From assembly GCA_964593365.1 (NCBI GenBank), contig CAZQGQ010000004.1:1-44868 (forward strand): a DNA stretch of 44,868 nt, written 5' to 3'. Every line of letters starts with the position of its first letter. The first letter of the stretch is position 1. Origin of the DNA: an uncultured Candidatus Saccharibacteria bacterium (lineage in GTDB: Bacteria > Patescibacteriota > Minisyncoccia > Phycocordibacterales > Phycocordibacteraceae). Below are positions 1 to 44,868 of the stretch, in pieces. The translations under genes were made by a program, and so were the position numbers. A model generated the notes under the pieces. It worked only from the letters and a program-made list of their open reading frames with translations. It did not search any database and was not told the DNA's origin.

Positions 1-59
1 CTTGAACCCCCGACCTTCTCAGTGTAAATGAGTTGCTCTACCAACTGAGCTAAGCGCGC
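1..59 (-). tRNA. tRNA-Val(TAC), 3' end cut by window edge
   Basis: Reverse complement GCGCGCT-TA-GCTCAGTTGGTAGAGC (D arm), anticodon loop TT-TAC-AC, T loop GGTTCAAG at the edge. Confidence 0.9.
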
Positions 60-1156: not shown

Positions 1157-1651
1157 ATGGAAGTCATCACTCCCGTTAAGGTAGAGGAGCGCCAAAAGAT
1201 CGGTATAAAGCCCGGGGATACTGTCCGTGTCCACCAGAAGATCGTTGAAAAGGGAAAGACCCGCACGCAGGTCTTCGAAGGACTTGTCCTTGCAACCAAG
1301 CACGGCTCTGAGGCAGGTGCTACGTTCACGGTCCGTGCGACCCTCTCTGGCATTGGCGTTGAACGTATCTTCCCCCTCTATGCTCCGTTCATCGAGAAGA
1401 TTGAGATCGTAAAGCGCTCGAAAGTCCGCCGCGCAAAGCTCTACTTCATCCGCGATAAGGTTGCCCGCGAGGTACGCCGCCAGCTCCGCAACATGCGCAT
1501 GATGAACGTCTCAACCGACGACTTTGCCGAAAAGGAAGTGCCTGCAGAGGCTCCTGAGGAAGTCGTCGCAGAAGAAGTCGTTGAAACTCCGGTAGTAGCA
1601 GAAGAGGCAGCAGCTCCTGCAGAGGAGACCGAAGAAGTGAAGGCTGCCTAG
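1157..1651 (+). CDS. rplS: 50S ribosomal protein L19 with acidic C-terminal extension
   Basis: PGDTVRVH, QVFEG, GVERIFP, KVRRAKLYFIR; ATG at 1157 preferred over 1136. Confidence 0.95.
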   Translation: MEVITPVKVEERQKIGIKPGDTVRVHQKIVEKGKTRTQVFEGLVLATKHGSEAGATFTVRATLSGIGVERIFPLYAPFIEKIEIVKRSKVRRAKLYFIRDKVAREVRRQLRNMRMMNVSTDDFAEKEVPAEAPEEVVAEEVVETPVVAEEAAAPAEETEEVKAA

Positions 1652-1831: not shown

Positions 1832-1866
1832 AATAGTTATTGCCTGTTCAGGCTAGTGCCAACTGC

Positions 1867-1875
1867 TTACCACAT
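1867..1875 (-). CDS. Two-codon minigene Met-Trp-stop
   Basis: Minus strand AAGGGAG-7 nt-ATG TGG TAA GC, downstream of a Trp attenuator; positional twin of ATG CAC TAA GC at 2749-2757. Confidence 0.65.
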   Translation of the reverse strand: MW

Positions 1876-1916
1876 AGTTGGTCTCCCTTCATAAGGCTGG
1901 TCTGTAAGGTAGACGC

Positions 1917-1995
1917 AAAACCCCTCCGTAAGGAGGGGGTTGGCTTTATGCGTGGTTCAGGCATCAAGACAATCCTCTCCTTAGGAGGGGATGGT
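1917..1995 (-). promoter_or_regulatory. Transcription attenuator (Trp-responsive)
   Basis: Segment 1 1995-1984, segment 2 1980-1961, segment 3 1951-1932 (16 of 20 positions pair with segment 2); terminator AACCCCCTCC-TTAC-GGAGGGGTTTT 1941-1917. Confidence 0.8.
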
Positions 1996-2087: not shown

Positions 2088-2124
2088 GCCACAGCGAATA
2101 GCCCAAAACTGCTATAGTTTGCGT

Positions 2125-2682
2125 ATGACGAGCAGCATTCAAGACAAGATAGCCCTCTTCGAGCGTGTATTGGCTGAAGTCCCCGAACTTCGCTATGCAG
2201 GCGATCCCATCCTTCGAACGCCAGCAAAAAGCGTGGCCTTGGAAGAAGGTCTTTTGATAGGGAAGCGGCTGGAAGAGGTACTGCTTCGCTTCCGTGCGAT
2301 TACTGGCGTTGGACGAGGGCTTGCAGCTCCGCAAATTGGAGAAGGTGCTTCTGTTTTTATTACGTACGTAGATGACACGGTTGAGACATTCATCAATCCC
2401 CGCATCGTTTCGACATCTGACACGAACAATATGTACAAAGAGCTTTGCATGAGCGTTGGCATTCTTGCAGCTGAAGTTGAGCGGGCAGAGGAAATACAGA
2501 TGGAGTGGACGGACGCTGAAGGGAACTCGCGCTCTGGGACTTTCAGTGGTTTTCTTGCGCGCCTCTATCAGCACGAGGAAGCCCATTTGCAGGGTCGTTT
2601 GAATATAGACGAGGCTACGCCAGGGGGAATTGAGTTTGCCACCTTTGACCCGCTCCAGGAAAAATTGCGACCGGTGAAATAA
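2125..2682 (+). CDS. def: Peptide deformylase (divergent motifs)
   Basis: GRGLAAPQIG, FINPRI, ELCMS (canonical EGCLS), QHEEAHLQG (HExxH); ATG 6 nt after TG-C-TATAGT. Confidence 0.88.
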   Translation: MTSSIQDKIALFERVLAEVPELRYAGDPILRTPAKSVALEEGLLIGKRLEEVLLRFRAITGVGRGLAAPQIGEGASVFITYVDDTVETFINPRIVSTSDTNNMYKELCMSVGILAAEVERAEEIQMEWTDAEGNSRSGTFSGFLARLYQHEEAHLQGRLNIDEATPGGIEFATFDPLQEKLRPVK

Positions 2683-2748: not shown

Positions 2749-2757
2749 TTAGTGCAT
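2749..2757 (-). CDS. Two-codon minigene Met-His-stop
   Basis: Minus strand GGAGG-5 nt-ATG CAC TAA GC, downstream of a His attenuator. Confidence 0.65.
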   Translation of the reverse strand: MH

Positions 2758-2803
2758 TGTCGCCTCCACTTTCGGGCCTTCCGTTTTATGGATTAACGAA
2801 TTG

Positions 2804-2898
2804 AACCCCTCGTCACTTGCGTGAGGAGGGGGCTATCTTCATGACACTCATCAAGACAATCCTCTCCGCGCGCGTGACGCCGGATGGTGCAGTTTATG
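2804..2898 (-). promoter_or_regulatory. Transcription attenuator (His-responsive) overlapping the 3' end of the repressor gene
   Basis: His codons at 2898-2896 and 2889-2884; segment 2 2867-2848 (19 nt identical to the Trp unit); segment 3 2844-2825; hairpin 2834-2804 with a GCAA loop and a weak U tract. Confidence 0.72.
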
Positions 2899-3162
2899 CA
2901 TCATCATTTTGTAACCGCCTTCTCCTTCCTGGAGCCACTTCGATACGCGAGCAACGGTCGTTGAGCTAAAGCCCGTTTTCTTCTCGATCTCGGTGTAGGG
3001 AACGTGCTTTGAAAGGAGCTCTGCCGTCTGGAAGCGCTTAGCGAACTCCGTGATCTCGCCTTCGGTCATAAGGTCGCGCAAAAAGCGTCGAACCTCATCC
3101 GGAGTTTCAAGGGCGAGCAGGGACTCGATAAGGCGGCGGTTTTCTTTCAAGGTCCAATTCAT
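2851..3162 (-). CDS. YerC/YecD (HisR), TrpR-like DNA-binding repressor with His-rich C-terminus
   Basis: FLRDLMTEGE...YTEIEKKTGFSSTTVARVSKWL..G.GGY matches the YerC/TrpR-related pattern; tail MMMHKLHHPASRARRGLS. Confidence 0.88.
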   Translation of the reverse strand: MNWTLKENRRLIESLLALETPDEVRRFLRDLMTEGEITEFAKRFQTAELLSKHVPYTEIEKKTGFSSTTVARVSKWLQEGEGGYKMMMHKLHHPASRARRGLS

Positions 3163-3169
3163 CAAGAGG

Positions 3170-3199
3170 CACTTTACTAGGGTAAAGTGAGCGTGTCAA
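3170..3199 (-). promoter_or_regulatory. Promoter TTGACA-17-TAAAGT with overlapping 20-bp palindromic operator
   Basis: -35 at 3199-3194, -10 at 3176-3171; palindrome CACTTTAC-TAGG-GTAAAGTG at 3170-3189. Confidence 0.85.
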
Positions 3200-3244: not shown

Positions 3245-3321
3245 GGCGGCCTTAGCTCAGCTGGTAGAGCTCCGGTTTGTGGTACCGGCGGTCGTGGGTT
3301 CGAGCCCCACAGGTCGCCCCA
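3245..3321 (+). tRNA. tRNA-His(GTG)
   Basis: G-1 followed by GCGGCCT acceptor pairing with AGGTCGC-C-CCA; anticodon arm CCGGT-TTGTGGT-ACCGG. Confidence 0.96.
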
Positions 3322-3724: not shown

Positions 3725-4384
3725 ATGAAAACACTTGCCGCAGGCGTCGTCCTTATTCTCTTGCTCGGGTTCGCCGGATTCTTTTATCGAAACGTTGCGG
3801 AGCAGACCGCTACTCCCCAGATGGCCTGCACGCTTGAGGCGAAGATCTGCCCAGACGGCTCCTCCGTCGGGCGCACAGGTCCTTCGTGCGAGTTTGCTGC
3901 CTGCCCGCTTCCTGGCGTTGAACTGCAAGATGCAGGCCTGGCGTTCGTTATCCCAGCTGACTACGCTCCAGACAACGCTGCTCCTGGCGCAGACCTAGCT
4001 ACCCTCGCTTCGTTCGTAAAGCCTTCGCTTACCGGAGGCGTGCCCCACGTGATTAGCGTTAGCCGCTACCAGATTCCGGAAGGGGAGACGGCAGAGGATG
4101 TCATGCTCGCACATACTCGCTACCAGCCAGCTGATATGCAGGCGGAAGACTTTGAACGCTTCGAGACCGTTCTCATTAACGGAAAGGAATTTAAAGGCAC
4201 CGTCATCGAGCGTTTTGAAGCGCAGATCCAGAGCGCGTACTACCTTGCACGCGGAGCAGACGTCCTTCGTTTTGATGTTATCGAGCACGACGTCGTTGAT
4301 TGGATGGAGCCAGCGCTTGAAGTCAGCAAGCTTCCCGAGCACGCGGCTTTCCTGAAGATGCTCGGAACGATCGAGCTTCGCTAG
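3725..4384 (+). CDS. Membrane-anchored exported protein with Cys-rich motif
   Basis: N-terminal hydrophobic helix, then CTLEAKICPDGSSVGRTGPSCEFAACP. Confidence 0.7.
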   Translation: MKTLAAGVVLILLLGFAGFFYRNVAEQTATPQMACTLEAKICPDGSSVGRTGPSCEFAACPLPGVELQDAGLAFVIPADYAPDNAAPGADLATLASFVKPSLTGGVPHVISVSRYQIPEGETAEDVMLAHTRYQPADMQAEDFERFETVLINGKEFKGTVIERFEAQIQSAYYLARGADVLRFDVIEHDVVDWMEPALEVSKLPEHAAFLKMLGTIELR

Positions 4385-5143
4385 TTACTCAAGCACAAGA
4401 AGTGCGACCATCACGAGAAGCCCAACGCCAAGGGCAAGAAGCTGAAGCGCCGAGTGGCGGACACGCGTCGTTTTATGCAGTTCAGGCACCAGGTCGGCAA
4501 GTGCGATGTAGATAAAGTTTCCAGCTGCGAATGCCGCGATAAGCGGGATGAGCATCTCGTGTATTCCGGCGAGCATGAAGGCAAGCCCGAGCCCTACGAA
4601 AGCAGTGAGTCCCGATAGGAAGTTCACGAAGAGCGCCTTTGCGCGCGAGTAGCCTGCGTGCAGCAAGAGTCCGAAGTCGCCGATTTCCTGCGGGATCTCA
4701 TGGAGCGCGATTGCAAGCGTGGTTGCGATACCGACTTCGGTCGAGACCATGAATGCGGCCCCGATAGCCATACCGTCGATAAGATTGTGCATGCCGTCAG
4801 AGACAAGCACGAGGTGTCCGACCGGATGGATCTGCGCGTGTTCGGGAGAGAACTCCTCATCGCCGTGGCTGTGGTGCCAGTGGAGGAATTTCTCAAGCAC
4901 GAAGAAGCTGAAGATTCCCGCAAGGATAAGAAGCGACACCAGAAGAGGATTGCCGGTCTCCTCAAACGCTTCTGGGATGAGGTGGATGAATGCGTCTCCA
5001 AGCAGGGCGCCTGCTGCAAGCGAGATGAGGAGGAAAAGTATCCGGCGAAGCAAGTTCTCCTTGAGAGAAAGGGTTGCGATACCGATAAGCGATACGAGGC
5101 TTATGGCAAGAACGGCGAGGGCGCCTGCTGCAAAGGGAGTCAT
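4385..5143 (-). CDS. ZIP-family zinc/metal transporter
   Basis: HLIPEA, His-rich loop HWHHSH, DGMHNLIDG, LHEIPQEIGDF. Confidence 0.93.
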   Translation of the reverse strand: MTPFAAGALAVLAISLVSLIGIATLSLKENLLRRILFLLISLAAGALLGDAFIHLIPEAFEETGNPLLVSLLILAGIFSFFVLEKFLHWHHSHGDEEFSPEHAQIHPVGHLVLVSDGMHNLIDGMAIGAAFMVSTEVGIATTLAIALHEIPQEIGDFGLLLHAGYSRAKALFVNFLSGLTAFVGLGLAFMLAGIHEMLIPLIAAFAAGNFIYIALADLVPELHKTTRVRHSALQLLALGVGLLVMVALLVLE

Positions 5144-36937: not shown

Positions 36938-38872
36938 ATGGTTGCAAACAATGCAATTGCTAAGATCGCGGCAGTAGTCGCTGGTCTTGGACTCGTTGCG
37001 ATGTCGTTTGCGTACGCTGCTCCGGCACGTGCTGCAACAACGGCAGAACTCGAGGCCCAGATTCAGGCACTTATGGCGCAGCTCGCAGCACTCGGAGGTA
37101 CTACCTCCGCTTCTACCACGTTCACGATGGATCTTACCCTCGGTTCAACAGGACCTCAGGTAACGGCTCTTCAGAACTGGCTTATCAGCAAAGGATTCGC
37201 TATTCCTGCAGGCGCAACTGGATACTTCGGTGCCCAGACGCAGTCAGCAGTAGCAGCATTCCAGGCAGCTAACGGAATTTCTCCAGCCGCAGGTTACTTT
37301 GGTCCGATGACTCGAACCAAGGTTAACGCTATGGCAGGTGGTTCAACTGGTGGAAGCACCGGTGGTTCAACTGGAGGAAGCACTGGCGGTTCAACTTCGT
37401 CTGACGAAGGCTACCTCGACGAGTTCGATGAGATTTCATCGATCAGCAGCGAGGAAGTTGGAGAAGATGAGGAAGACGTAGCAGTCCTCGGTGTAGAGAT
37501 GGAAGCTGTTGACGCTGATCAGACGATCACGCGCGTAACAGTTGAAATCGACACTCCAGCAGGTTCAAGCCCTTCTGACGACCTCGAAGACTTCATCACT
37601 GAAGTCTCTGTATGGCTCGACGGCGAGGAACTCGACCGCATGGAAATCGAAGACGCAAGCCACGACCGCTCAGCAGATGAATACACCTTCCGCTTCACTG
37701 GCCTTGATGGCGAGATCAGCGAAGGTGATATGGCAGAGCTTACGGTCGCAGTTACTGGAGTCGGAAACCTCGACTCTGATGACGAAGGCGACGGATGGAC
37801 CGTTACGATTCCTACTGATGGAATCCGCGCAGTCTCTCCAAACGGAGTTGATGACACCTACGATTCAGGTGCCTTCAACGAAACGTTCACACTCGAGACT
37901 TTTGCTTCGGCAAACGATGTTGAGTTGAACGCAACTCTTACGGACGAAAGCCCAGAAGAGACCGTTGCTATCGTTGAAGACGAAGACGAGGAAATCGTTC
38001 TTCTTGAGTGGGATTTCGAAGCTGATGGGGATTTGACCCTCAACGACCTCGAGATCGACCTCACTTCAGTCGGTGCTGATCCAAACGTTATCGCAAACGA
38101 ACTCACTCTCGATTGGGGAGATGATTCACAGCGCGAGAACATTGGTGCTGGCGCAGGACCTATCGCGGTTGTCTTTGATGACCTCGAACTCGACTTCGAA
38201 GACGGTGACACGATGACCTTCCAGGTTATCGCAACCGTTAACGACTTCGGTGGCGCCTTCGGCGCAGGCGACACGCTTAAGGCTGATCTTGACACCTCTG
38301 AAACAGACGTAGAGGACGCATCCGGTGAAGAACTCACTGGTACCGACCTTTCCGGTTCTGCTAACGGTGAAGCTCAGCACTTCTTCGAGATTGCTCCAGA
38401 AATCGACCTAGAAAACGTCGAAATGAGCATTGTTGAGAAGGATAACGGCGATGCCGCAGCTGAATCAGCAACGGCCACCATCGAATTCGATCTTATCGCC
38501 CGCGGCGGAACTTTGTTCCTCAACGGTGATGATGAGACGACCGAGGCGGACGAAGCCTTCCGCGTGGACGCAACTGGTACCGACTCATCGGTTACGAGCT
38601 ACACAGTGACCATCACTGGATACTCTGACGTCGATAACAGCGGTGCTAACGAGGAATACTTCACTGTTGACGAGGATCGAGAGGTCCACGTCCTCATTGA
38701 AGCTGTCGTTACCAAGGACGGTGCAGGAACAGCTCTCGTTGGCCTTGAGGTCATCGAAGTACAGTTCGGTACTGTTGCCACAGATGATGACACCCGCTCT
38801 GCGTTTGTCATGAGCTGGGCAGACCTTCTCGATGAACTCGAGACAGGCCGCTTGGCACTCACTGGTGCGTAA
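36938..38872 (+). CDS. Secreted acidic S-layer-like protein with N-terminal peptidoglycan-binding domain
   Basis: Signal peptide, coiled coil, GPQVTALQNWL..TGYFGAQT..AV..FQAANGI...GYFGPMTR, GGST linker, very Asp/Glu-rich beta-rich body. Confidence 0.85.
   Translation: MVANNAIAKIAAVVAGLGLVAMSFAYAAPARAATTAELEAQIQALMAQLAALGGTTSASTTFTMDLTLGSTGPQVTALQNWLISKGFAIPAGATGYFGAQTQSAVAAFQAANGISPAAGYFGPMTRTKVNAMAGGSTGGSTGGSTGGSTGGSTSSDEGYLDEFDEISSISSEEVGEDEEDVAVLGVEMEAVDADQTITRVTVEIDTPAGSSPSDDLEDFITEVSVWLDGEELDRMEIEDASHDRSADEYTFRFTGLDGEISEGDMAELTVAVTGVGNLDSDDEGDGWTVTIPTDGIRAVSPNGVDDTYDSGAFNETFTLETFASANDVELNATLTDESPEETVAIVEDEDEEIVLLEWDFEADGDLTLNDLEIDLTSVGADPNVIANELTLDWGDDSQRENIGAGAGPIAVVFDDLELDFEDGDTMTFQVIATVNDFGGAFGAGDTLKADLDTSETDVEDASGEELTGTDLSGSANGEAQHFFEIAPEIDLENVEMSIVEKDNGDAAAESATATIEFDLIARGGTLFLNGDDETTEADEAFRVDATGTDSSVTSYTVTITGYSDVDNSGANEEYFTVDEDREVHVLIEAVVTKDGAGTALVGLEVIEVQFGTVATDDDTRSAFVMSWADLLDELETGRLALTGA
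37337..37396 (+). repeat. Five 12-nt coding tandem repeats (GGST linker)
   Basis: GGTGGTTCAACT alternating with GG(T/A)GGAAGCAC(C/T). Confidence 0.8.
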
Positions 38873-39044: not shown

Positions 39045-40550
39045 ATGTATCGACAACTCGCTCTTACGAGCCCTGTTCGGTTTCTTACGGCAGCAGTTCT
39101 TGCTGCAACATTAGTCGCAGTCCTTGTGGTCCCGAGCTTTGCTCAGGCTGCAACGCTTACCCTTACGGCTAGCGAGACGACCCCTAACTCAACCATAAAG
39201 TCTGTTCCGGCCATCACGACCGCCGGCGGCGTTACGGAAGTAAAGGCAACTCGAACCATCACCGTTGACACTGTTCCTGCGAACGCTGTCACGCTTACCA
39301 TCGGTACTTGTGTCGTCACCTTCGGTACGGCAGCATCTCAGGAACTCAGCTGTAGCGACAACGTTGCAGCAGTGAACACCACTACGGATGCTACTGCCGC
39401 CGCTGTTGCTGCTCGCCTTCGTTCTTTGACAAACGTCTCTGACACCGGTCACGGAGCTCTTACAGTTGGAGGAAGTGGTTCAACAGCAAGCTTCACTACA
39501 ACTGGTACTGAGTCAGCTGCAACCGTCATCACAGCGTCGCTCTCTTCTGGATCGTCAATCACACTTACGACTGTAAATACTACAGGTGTAATTCCAGTTG
39601 CAGCAACTGTAACGATTGTTATCACTGGTGCACTTCCAGCAGTTTCTGCTGACCAAACTCTCAACATCGATGCAGACCTCGGTGTCGCCCTTGGAGCATC
39701 GGCTTTGACTGCAGCAGAAGTTGCGGATGCAATTCGCACCCAGGTTACCGCTGACCCTCAGTATGCTGGCAAGAACTATGCCGTGACTGGAGCAGGCGCT
39801 AACATCATCTTCACCCGCGAATCTGCAGGTGCAGCTGGAAACGGAGCCATCACTATCACTGAAGGAGACTACGGTTCAAAAGCACAGGTAGTTACCTTCA
39901 CGACAGCAGATACTTCTCCAAGTAAGGTGTTCACGATTACTATCAACGACAACGACTATAGCGTAGAAGACGTAGACTCAGCACAGGACATGGTTGAAAG
40001 CCTTGTTGAACTGCTTGCTGCTGAAACAGCTATAACCTGCACCGAAGATAACGTTGTGATTACCTGTACTGCAGATGTTGCAGGAACAGCTTTCACGTAC
40101 GCAACCGCAGTTACTGACCGAGAGGACAGTGGCGGAGGAGGTGGTGGTGGTGGTGGTGGCTCGTCTAACAACAACGATGACGATGAAGACGAAGACGAAG
40201 ATGAGGATTCAAACGATGACTCAAATTCTGATTCTGACACCGTAACGGTTGAAAGCATCCTCGCAAAGATCGCACAGATCCGCGCAGCTCTTGCTGAAAT
40301 GAACGGTGGAACAACGACCGTCGCAGTTGAGGCAAGTGCAGACCTCGACCTTGAATCTGAAGGACCTCAGGTAGTCTCACTTCAGACTTGGTTGATTGCA
40401 AAGGGATACGCTATCCCAGCCGGTGCAACTGGATACTTCGGTGCCCAGACACAGGCAGCTCTTGCGGCATACCAGGCAGCTAACGGAATCACTCCAGCAG
40501 CTGGCTACTACGGCCCAAAGACGCGTGCGTTCATGCAGGCCAACCCGTAA
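39045..40550 (+). CDS. Secreted Thr/Ala-rich surface protein with C-terminal peptidoglycan-binding domain
   Basis: Signal peptide ending AQA, poly-Gly and Asp/Glu linker, coiled coil, GPQVVSLQTWL..TGYFGAQT...GYYGPKTR; start set at ATG 39045. Confidence 0.85.
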   Translation: MYRQLALTSPVRFLTAAVLAATLVAVLVVPSFAQAATLTLTASETTPNSTIKSVPAITTAGGVTEVKATRTITVDTVPANAVTLTIGTCVVTFGTAASQELSCSDNVAAVNTTTDATAAAVAARLRSLTNVSDTGHGALTVGGSGSTASFTTTGTESAATVITASLSSGSSITLTTVNTTGVIPVAATVTIVITGALPAVSADQTLNIDADLGVALGASALTAAEVADAIRTQVTADPQYAGKNYAVTGAGANIIFTRESAGAAGNGAITITEGDYGSKAQVVTFTTADTSPSKVFTITINDNDYSVEDVDSAQDMVESLVELLAAETAITCTEDNVVITCTADVAGTAFTYATAVTDREDSGGGGGGGGGGSSNNNDDDEDEDEDEDSNDDSNSDSDTVTVESILAKIAQIRAALAEMNGGTTTVAVEASADLDLESEGPQVVSLQTWLIAKGYAIPAGATGYFGAQTQAALAAYQAANGITPAAGYYGPKTRAFMQANP

Positions 40551-44359: not shown

Positions 44360-44868
44360 CAGGAAACACTGAAGGGTGCGCGGTGGATGCCTAGGCTTAC
44401 AACAGCGATGAAGGACGCGATTAACCGGCGAAACGCTTCGGGGAGGTGGTTATTAACCTTTGATCCGGAGATATCCGAATGGGGAAACCCAGACCTTTAT
44501 TGGTCTATCTCTTCCATTACAGGAAGGGGAGCGAACCTCGGGAAGTGAAACATCTCAGTACCGAGAGGAATAGAAAACAACAGCGAGTTGTGTTCTCTTC
44601 AAGCATTATGTTTGTTTGAAGGGAACACAACTCTCGCGATTTCCTTAGTAGCGGCGAGCGAAACGGAAACAGCCCAAACCGTAGGTCTTCGGACTTGCGG
44701 GGTAGTAAGACGGAAGCGCCGTACTTGTACGGCATAAGTTACAAAACGTTTCTATAGCGGAAGTTGCTGGAAAGCAACGCCCCAGAGGGTAATGGCCCCG
44801 TACGCGAAATAGAAATGACTTATGTGCTTCTGTTCTTGAGTAACTCGAGACACGAATAGCTCGGGCGA
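44360..44868 (+). rRNA. rrl: 23S rRNA, 5' portion (runs off the window; 5' end approximate)
   Basis: CGGTGGATGCCTAGGC, GCGATGAAGGACG, CCGAATGGGGAAACCC, GAAGTGAAACATCTCAGTACC, AGTAGCGGCGAGCGAA. Confidence 0.97.

Follow-up and report, generated by a model that had tools for sequence, protein, structure and literature searches.

Can the C-terminus of a repressor be used as the leader peptide of an attenuator? This question is raised by hisR, a gene of the yerC/yecD family encoding a TrpR-like repressor, in an uncultured Candidatus Saccharibacteria bacterium (GenBank assembly GCA_964593365.1, contig CAZQGQ010000004.1). The window, i.e., the whole stretch of 44,868 nucleotides (nt) analysed here, belongs to a genome of 716,520 bases in 47 contigs, 99.73% complete. 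An earlier note on this DNA had proposed that the tail of the repressor doubles as a His attenuator leader, so that His starvation would both stall the completion of the repressor and open readthrough. We consider it likely that the last ~16 codons of hisR, together with ~45 nt past the stop codon, represent a conserved family of ribosome-dependent histidine attenuators of bacteria of the Candidate Phyla Radiation (CPR), with the repressor C-terminus as leader. At the level of the family, comparison of related sequences gives good support to the repressor tail as a His leader peptide. What the window alone would offer is more modest, namely a drifting copy that is deprived of a target and a second, orphan copy.

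The first line of evidence is the conservation of the tail as a protein. A search with the window HisR gave 409 matches at E <= 1e-5, and the tail counts use the 120 best. These homologues have ~92-121 residues (aa) and are mostly 51-73% identical to the query (P0001, the window's own protein, being 100% identical); the named ones among them are YerC/YecD of Paceibacteria-type CPR. In their last 25 residues, 111/120 carry HH and 75/120 carry HHH, and 68/120 end with GLS, the typical tail being K-L-H-H-H-N-S-I-Q-x-R-R-G-L-S. A scan of species genomes provided 554 confirmed yerC loci, and all locus counts given below rest on the best 80 of these 554. In the 79 loci with a complete end of the yerC open reading frame (ORF), HH is present in 70 and HHH in 44. 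The distance from the His run to the stop codon is 10 or 11 codons in 50/70 loci and 8-14 codons in 67/70, and HH exceeds 90% in the homologue alignment A2. The codons themselves were compared, in 32 loci ending in [RK]GLS, between the tail and the remainder of the same genes. Gly is written GGG 37 times out of 42 in the tail (10/161 elsewhere), Leu is written TTG in 31/32 cases (61/288 elsewhere) and Ser TCT in 31/32 (36/162 elsewhere). By this comparison, the RRGLS codons are fixed at synonymous sites across the family.

The second line of evidence comes from the RNA. In the family, the nucleotides are conserved through the stop codon and ~100 nt past it. The consensus reads, in order, CAU-CAU-CAU His codons, AACUCUAUCC (segment 1), GGAGAGGGUUGUCU-UGA-UG (segment 2), a variable loop, CAUGAAGCUAACCCCCUCC (segment 3), a further loop, and GGAGGGGGUU then UUUCGUUUG (segment 4 and U tract). 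After the U tract come a fifth hairpin, GUUCUUURAAAA, GGAG and the next start codon. The terminators of the relatives carry GGAGGGGGTT and TTTCGTTTG. Both the terminator and its complement were sought in 78 loci, i.e., 76 yerC loci with enough 3' sequence, the window and the locus L003. A hairpin followed by T's is found within 130 nt of the stop in 77/78 of them (the exception being L066). When the 5' arm of the terminator was set against sliding 24-nt windows across the last 240 nt of each gene, its best complement was the 24-nt stretch holding the stop codon in 68/78 loci, and this stretch beat all distant windows in 68/78 (median z = -5). Five of the ten exceptions have a few extra codons past GLS, and the five others differ otherwise.

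Covariation was examined in two alignments. The first one, A3, is a MAFFT alignment of 32 loci hand-picked for typical tails. The alternative pairing of segments 2 and 3 (2:3) is 84.4% paired there, versus 41-56% in slid controls, with double changes in 11 pairs and a score that 0/500 shuffles reach. Pair 31-91 of this alignment, which joins the first base of an Arg codon to a base of the terminator loop, is found as AU 10, CG 10, GU 4 and GC 3 times; since column 91 lies in the terminator loop, this covariation cannot come from the 3:4 hairpin. The second alignment, A6, gathers 52 matches (51 distinct) of R1, a covariance model of the terminated state, and was made without reference to 2:3. 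In the 51 distinct sequences, 2:3 is 83.4% paired, versus 41-54% in slid controls, and the double-change cells number 64 versus 27 +/- 4 in shuffles (0/500). The other helices are paired at 92.3% (A3) and 90.5% (A6) for 1:2, 95.9% and 97.4% for 3:4, and 83.8% and 90.7% for hairpin 5. Column 109 of A6, in segment 3, covaries both with column 38 in segment 2 (GC 35, AU 10) and with column 135 in segment 4 (CG 38, UA 10), and such a dual covariation is what a switch predicts. The accompanying change in segment 2 turns Arg AGA into Lys AAA, so that here the protein follows the RNA. His tails and downstream stems, on whose presence in homologues the earlier note had made its proposal depend, are both present and conserved.

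Hairpin 5 (GUUUGCC...GGCAAAC) lies ~+55 to +110 past the yerC stop (L014-L093) and shows double changes in 7/7 pairs. A boxA-like GTTCTTTRAAAA is present in 40/79 loci and stands, with hairpin 5, directly before the GGAG of the following gene. The idea of a ribosomal RNA leader, suggested by this box, was abandoned: no 16S 5' end is found up to 3 kb downstream in the 79 loci. A small ORF past the stop codon (TGATG) was rejected as well, its ATG being unconserved and followed by an immediate stop in the relatives. We also set aside a second match of the model in L050 (3994-4134, minus strand), which is the terminator of a 449-aa ORF without tail homology; this ORF was read as an Asp/Asn-tRNA synthetase without a profile scan. 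In the 10 loci searched, the element matches no Rfam family at E <= 1.

What stands behind the element in the relatives? In 63 loci, an ORF of 150 aa or more begins on the same strand no further than 350 nt away, as a rule ~90-130 nt past the stop, and most loci have same-strand genes ~50-130 nt behind the terminator. Clustering of the 63 ORFs by blastp gives 23 GNAT, 10 HisG, 10 GCS2-like, two clusters of 7 and 5 unknown proteins, 2 radical SAM and 6 singletons, among which are HisIE (L074) and a methyltransferase. Two of the 23 GNAT proteins were scanned and both are GNAT, Pfam and NCBIfam giving no finer function; 2/10 of the HisG cluster were scanned and both match PF01634. The GCS2-like proteins are 295-307 aa long, without Pfam or NCBIfam match in the 2/2 scanned, and the lead to GCS2 comes from the ESM Atlas only. 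A tRNA gene lies on the same strand within 200 nt behind the element in 5/77 loci (L030, L032, L034, L036 and L086), and all five are tRNA-His (GTG). These five loci represent two gene contexts and may be related, and thus they are not five independent events.

Several observations were made along the way in these neighbourhoods. The hisG gene behind the element is usually solitary: it is followed by convergent genes in L015, by a glmS ribozyme (4199-4392, 64.5 bits) and an ORF read as glmS without a profile scan in L025, by a purF-like gene in L073 and by a short hisI-like ORF in L029. The order hisG-hisD-hisC is found only in L087, whose YerC does not have the typical tail. In several loci, an AstE/AspA-type deacylase gene (PF24827, 3.3e-19 for L014) is convergent behind a GNAT or GCS2-like target (L014 4117-4932, L031 4062-4889 and L003 2-412, all on the minus strand); such a set of an acyltransferase, a ligase and a deacylase is suggestive of a pathway for amino-acid conjugates. 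In L054, ARAGORN reports at 1382-1455 a tRNA-Tyr with the anticodon ATA, adjoining a normal tRNA-Tyr (GTA). In L074, a weak T-box-like match (1462-1613, minus strand; 34.6 bits versus a gathering score of 93) lies upstream of yerC-hisIE.

The regulator itself can be named with some precision. The hisR product passes PF01371 (6e-20, 71.5 bits, cut-off 27) and TIGR02531 (YerC/YecD; 65.2 bits versus a cut-off of 42.2), is 63-71% identical to >100 CPR proteins and is encoded by a single gene copy in the genome. Translation probably starts at ATG 3162, since the 100% identical P0001 has a length of 103 aa. According to the accessible part of Ashniev et al. 2022 (PMC9413887), YerC of B. subtilis is HisR, with histidine as co-repressor and cacTTTAnnnnnnTAAAgtg as operator consensus. 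The palindrome located at 3170-3189 fits this consensus at 14/14 specified positions, with 0 mismatches, and it is the sole site of the genome with fewer than 2 mismatches, without any second operator; when up to 3 mismatches are allowed, the whole genome holds 15 sites versus 15 in a backwards-read control. Related palindromes, CTTTAC-N4-CTAAAG, stand at the same place upstream of yerC in 61/79 loci, often as two sites 18 bp apart. By its family profiles and this operator match, the gene at 2851-3162 is a HisR-type YerC, in agreement with the YerC/HisR-like label that it had been given at first. The -10 box of its predicted promoter, TAAAGT (3176-3171), ends ~8 nt before ATG 3162 and no Shine-Dalgarno sequence is present; owing to this short gap and this absence, the hisR mRNA is probably leaderless.

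The conservation, the covariation, the gene context and the operator match are read directly from the sequences, and stalling, termination and readthrough are what we infer. In the family, the element consists of 2-4 His codons, segment 1 (N-S-I-Q), segment 2 (R-R-G-L-S and the stop codon), a loop, segment 3, and segment 4 with its U tract. By analogy with trp and his attenuation, a ribosome arriving at the stop codon would cover segment 2, 3:4 would form and transcription would end. On the other hand, with a His codon in the A site, a stalled ribosome would sit on segment 1 without reaching segment 2, so that 2:3 would form and RNA polymerase would enter the next gene. If no ribosome were present, 1:2 and 3:4 would form and termination would ensue. 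HisR would moreover repress its own promoter through the canonical operator. With this His-dependent autorepression, one gene of ~450 nt would sense free histidine at initiation and charged tRNA-His at its end, and stalling would also delay the completion of the repressor. In the relatives, the switch would precede hisG, hisIE, tRNA-His, the GNAT acetyltransferase gene, the GCS2-like ligase gene and others, its target having presumably been lost in the window genome.

With less assurance, we lean towards a broader view, in which the family is a portable cassette of ~450 nt in CPR of the Paceibacteria type. One cistron would hold both the repressor and the leader, and the tail HHH-NSIQ-xRRGLS would be largely dictated by RNA pairing. 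The fifth hairpin and the GTTCTTTRAAAA box before the Shine-Dalgarno sequence would complete the cassette, which would be placed before different genes, including tRNA-His and, in bacteria unable to make histidine, enzymes.

How does the window fit in this family? The C-terminus of its HisR reads ...GGYKMMMHKLHHPASRARRGLS and is followed by the stop codon; the tail, its three His codons and a stop located inside segment 2, as first described, were found again when the sequence was re-read. The shape of the 1:2 hairpin is specific to the window, where PASRA codons replace the NSIQ codons of the family segment 1, and R1 leaves the 1:2 part of the window unaligned. The 2:3 pairing, first counted as 17 of 20 positions, comes to 18 pairs and -22.0 kcal/mol with RNAduplex, in rough agreement. 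Within the last 240 nt, no stretch complements the terminator arm better than the one holding the stop codon: it reaches -25.1 kcal/mol, whereas distant stretches average -9.2 (z = -4.7) and 3:4 has -16.6 kcal/mol. The two conformations are near-equal in energy: the terminated form is the minimum free energy (MFE) structure of 2780-2915 and the 2:3 form that of 2795-2900. The fold also beats its shuffles (z = -3.05). No Rfam family matches the window element at gathering scores, and neither His_leader nor T-box gives a match. Thus, the hisR-tail unit presents some usual traits of an attenuator, i.e., His codons clustered in an ORF, mutually exclusive pairings and a stop inside segment 2; it has neither a regulated gene on the same strand nor a short dedicated leader ORF, the ORF being a full 103-aa repressor. 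The control of histidine biosynthesis or uptake genes, expected of a HisR, finds no counterpart in the genome, in which neither his genes nor a second operator were found. HisRS is present in the genome.

Judged against the family, the hisR-tail unit is a degenerate copy, whose segment 1 and U tract have drifted and whose target has been lost. Most likely, it is mainly the terminator of hisR, or it is decaying. As for any function in this genome, which we likewise infer, the surviving hairpin may terminate hisR, or gate antisense transcription across the neighbouring def gene up to the orphan terminator. Of the double switch first proposed for His starvation, the leader role is thus backed across the family, but the readthrough has no visible target in the window, because def runs towards hisR and the genome searches gave no his genes.

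Features of the window (strand. where none applies; coordinates are those of the whole stretch)
Feature	Position	Strand	Remarks
hisR (yerC/yecD family TrpR-like repressor)	2851..3162	minus	103 aa from ATG 3162; ORF finder start TTG 3165 (104 aa)
HisR operator CACTTTACTAGGGTAAAGTG	3170..3189	.	perfect 20-bp palindrome, 8 bases upstream of ATG, overlaps predicted -10 box
Predicted hisR promoter, TTGACA, 17 nt, TAAAGT	3171..3199	minus	consensus match only
tRNA-His (GTG)	3246..3321	plus	divergent from hisR, 57 nt beyond operator
Putative regulatory His codons	2884..2898	minus	CAT 2898-2896, CAC-CAT 2889-2884; HH pair ends 10 codons before stop
Segment 1:2 hairpin, terminated state	2861..2887	minus	from MFE structure
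Segment 2, GGAGAGGATTGTCTTGATG	2849..2867	minus	codons RGLS, stop TGA 2853-2851 and next 2 nt
Segment 3, TCATGAAGATAGCCCCCTCC	2825..2844	minus	alternative partners: segment 2 (antiterminator) or segment 4 (terminator)
3:4 terminator hairpin, CCCCTCCTCAC-GCAA-GTGACGAGGGG	2806..2831	minus	-16.6 kcal/mol
Orphan second attenuator copy	1878..1995	minus	segments 2-4, U tract TTTTGCGTCT, short hairpin-5 remnant
def (peptide deformylase-like ORF)	2119..2682	plus	convergent on hisR, between both attenuator copies

A number of points weigh against the attenuator family as we read it. In the family, a His run is short, with 2-3 codons, a role in the protein is also conceivable for the conserved tail, and no link with histidine is known for many of the genes downstream (GNAT, GCS2-like, radical SAM, methyltransferase). 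The element is sporadic, being detected by the model in 8/151 genomes of the order, the window genome included. The 32-sequence seed was chosen by the analyst for typical tails, and kinship among the sequences inflates the shuffle statistics. In the window, the His run is again short, with one single His and one pair; R1 gives the hisR-tail copy just 11.6 bits (E = 0.05 in 1.2 kb); and the U tract after the 3:4 hairpin, TTCAATTCG (2805-2797), is as weak as the earlier note had warned, with 5 T of 9. No same-strand gene lies downstream, the next gene, def, being convergent. A tblastn search of the genome with HisG, HisIE, HisD, HisC, GNAT, AstE-like and three unknown families gave no match, and the genome profile scan gave none for PF01634 (HisG) and just one, below cut-off, for PF00977.

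The window holds a second copy of the element, which had at first been taken for a paralogous Trp unit and is better read as an orphan yerC 3' end. Indeed, in the yerC frame it shows ~16 relic tail codons, ..HVGLDHPLLRRGLS and stop (..LDHPLLRRGLS*), and R1 gives it 39.7 bits over the model positions 14-136, versus 11.6 for the hisR-tail copy. Its 2:3 pairing amounts to 19 pairs and -20.7 kcal/mol (RNAduplex), its fold differs from shuffles at z = -3.44, and its terminator and U tract are better than those of the hisR-tail copy. No intact hisR is attached to it, it offers no start codon preceded by a Shine-Dalgarno sequence, and no gene follows on the minus strand, the plus strand carrying tRNA-Leu and L19. 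The 19-mer of segment 2 recurs exactly at 1980-1962 (minus strand), and the genome contains no third copy at <=3 mismatches. The sequence ACCATCC, noted from the start as segment 1, is common to both units. The cores of the two units have a similarity score of 41, versus 13.9 +/- 2.2 in shuffles (0/1000 reach 41); beyond these cores of ~55-90 nt, similarity is non-significant (248/1000 and 54/1000 shuffles). The differences between the two copies had been described as preserving pairing: they are mostly one-sided changes from G-U to G-C or U-A, but one of them breaks a pair.

How did these two copies arise? One explanation, compatible with a His attenuator family, is that they are rearrangement scars, i.e., direct repeats left by the insertion or recombination of def into the hisR 3' region. 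They do form direct repeats flanking def, ~890 nt apart, and their likeness stops at the core. The def label is a sequence reading made without a Pfam scan, and the product matches a def-like ORF in L031 (tblastn); a terminator-like palindrome was seen by eye after def, at ~2685-2725. As def is near yerC in only 1/79 loci (L031), the arrangement of the window is derived, and def was ruled out as a conserved neighbour of yerC. On the other hand, no integrase, no transposase and no close relative with an empty site were found, and the copies are only ~70% alike outside the 19-mer; this implies that the event is old, or that the 19-mer has been kept by selection or gene conversion. We hold this explanation as tentative, its chances being somewhat short of even, and in our reading, the cassette was separated from its target by a rearrangement that is old. 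Such scars would explain both the duplication and the loss of the target.

Some further signals around the two copies were recorded. Some ~45-60 nt behind each copy, a Shine-Dalgarno-like word precedes an ORF of two codons; this is GGAGG-N5-ATG-CAC-TAA behind the hisR-tail copy (Met-His-stop; 2749-2767, minus strand) and, behind the orphan copy, GGGAG-N7-ATG-TGG-TAA (Met-Trp-stop; ~1860-1880, minus strand). These mini-ORFs sit at non-homologous positions of the alignment and may be due to chance. A small protein on the plus strand ('IKTILS' in the ORFs 2817-2969 and 1840-2055) was rejected, its motif being the reverse complement of segment 2 and the ORF overlapping hisR by 119 nt.

Could the element be a plain gene end? 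In this case, the His-rich RRGLS tail would be a feature of the protein (ligand or metal binding, dimer contact), the hairpin would be the terminator of hisR, and 2:3 would be a by-product of GGAGRGG-like words. At the protein level, conservation of the tail extends over 120 homologues, the window has nothing downstream to regulate, and segments 2 and 4 look alike, so that complementarity to segment 3 comes partly free. However, a protein feature leaves the fixed synonymous sites of RRGLS unexplained, and pair 31-91 covaries though its terminator-loop base is free of the 3:4 constraint. The R-to-K changes accompany changes in segments 3 and 4, and in most loci same-strand genes lie ~50-130 nt behind the supposed end. 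Moreover, the solved HisR homologues of Firmicutes (3g1c, 3frw and 3kor), which align through the helix after GY, have no His at the tail positions, i.e., they do without the His run. We therefore judge a plain gene end to be unlikely.

A different possibility keeps the switch and removes its specificity: it would report that hisR is translated to the end, as a general coupling or polarity device, with incidental His codons. The geometry, indeed, asks for no more than a ribosome that has reached the stop codon, many of the genes located downstream are other than histidine genes, and 9/79 loci do not have the HH pair. Incidental codons are nevertheless hard to reconcile with an HH that exceeds 90% in A2 and stands at a fixed distance from the stop, and with the recurrence downstream of hisG, hisIE and tRNA-His, all the tRNA genes directly behind the element being tRNA-His. 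This makes a switch without histidine specificity quite unlikely. The original two-unit model, which took unit 1 for a His attenuator and unit 2 (1878-1995) for its Trp paralogue with MWAWTIPS as leader, is highly improbable: an ATG-TGG-GCC-TGG frame does end just before segment 2 of unit 2, which has the better terminator, but no Shine-Dalgarno sequence precedes its ATG, no minus-strand gene follows, TrpA found no match in the genome, and the Trp codons, supposed to sit where the His codons sit, lie in a different reading frame, the yerC frame giving the relic tail that the family model aligns from position 14.

A His attenuator carried by the end of a repressor gene resembles several known systems without being identical to any of them. 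In enterobacteria, the hisL leader is a mini-ORF of its own, in which 7 His codons stand in a row. The CPR element shares with the hisL attenuator a His-codon run in an ORF, the mutually exclusive 1:2, 2:3 and 3:4 pairings, a predicted intrinsic terminator and the position of the stop codon, where a terminating ribosome would mask segment 2; it differs in that the leader is the C-terminus of a DNA-binding repressor of 103-104 aa, with 2-4 His codons. In the E. coli trp system, the repressor gene, the leader ORF and the operon are separate units. There too, a repressor of the TrpR family responds to the free amino acid and an attenuator to the charged tRNA (TrpR and trpL), whereas here the repressor gene and the leader form one cistron directly before the target. 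As far as the accessible part of PMC9413887 goes, the HisR regulons of Firmicutes and other phyla have in common with the present case the protein family, the operator consensus, the autoregulation of hisR and, in some phyla, a leading position of hisR in his operons. The same part of this source finds His attenuators only in lineages without HisR, describes HisR as shorter than 100 aa, mentions no His tail and lists no CPR/Patescibacteria, the word 'patescibacteria' being found 0 times. The His attenuators that it describes in the Bacillus cereus group, Peptostreptococcaceae and Erysipelotrichales likewise have 3-5 consecutive His codons, directly ahead of the terminator and antiterminator hairpins, but these belong to short stand-alone leader ORFs upstream of his operons and are not fused to a regulator. 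From what could be consulted on peTrpL/rnTrpL of Sinorhizobium, the translated product of an attenuator can act in trans; there, a 14-aa peptide has gained a side function, while in the present case a leader role seems to have been acquired, or retained, by a full repressor.

Literature searches, which left many subscription journals and the supplements of PMC9413887 outside their coverage, returned no HisR/YerC with an embedded attenuator and no description of YerC in CPR. As far as this literature goes, the attenuation mechanism is known and the fusion of leader and regulator is new. Attenuation by leader peptides is a textbook mechanism, in which the leader has always been regarded as a disposable mini-ORF. 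One attenuator screen at least, according to the accessible part of its report (PMC2965389), dropped the terminators located nearer to the upstream than to the downstream gene, as ordinary gene ends, and a class with the leader inside the repressor would therefore be missed.

Elsewhere in the window, a direct repeat of 165 nt with 78% identity is found at 37150-37314 and 40361-40525, 3211 nt apart. The window starts with a truncated tRNA (1-59, minus strand) and ends with the 5' part of a 23S rRNA gene (44360-44868, 275.9 bits).

If the attenuator family is as we read it, its consequences would reach beyond this locus. Where the element precedes a tRNA-His gene, this gene would be controlled by the decoding of its own codons. 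Repression and attenuation, the two classic layers of amino-acid control, would be merged in one gene, and the tail of HisR would be a clear case of an RNA structure shaping a protein sequence. Such a switch would also open a first way into the regulation of genes in CPR bacteria, which have been little studied.

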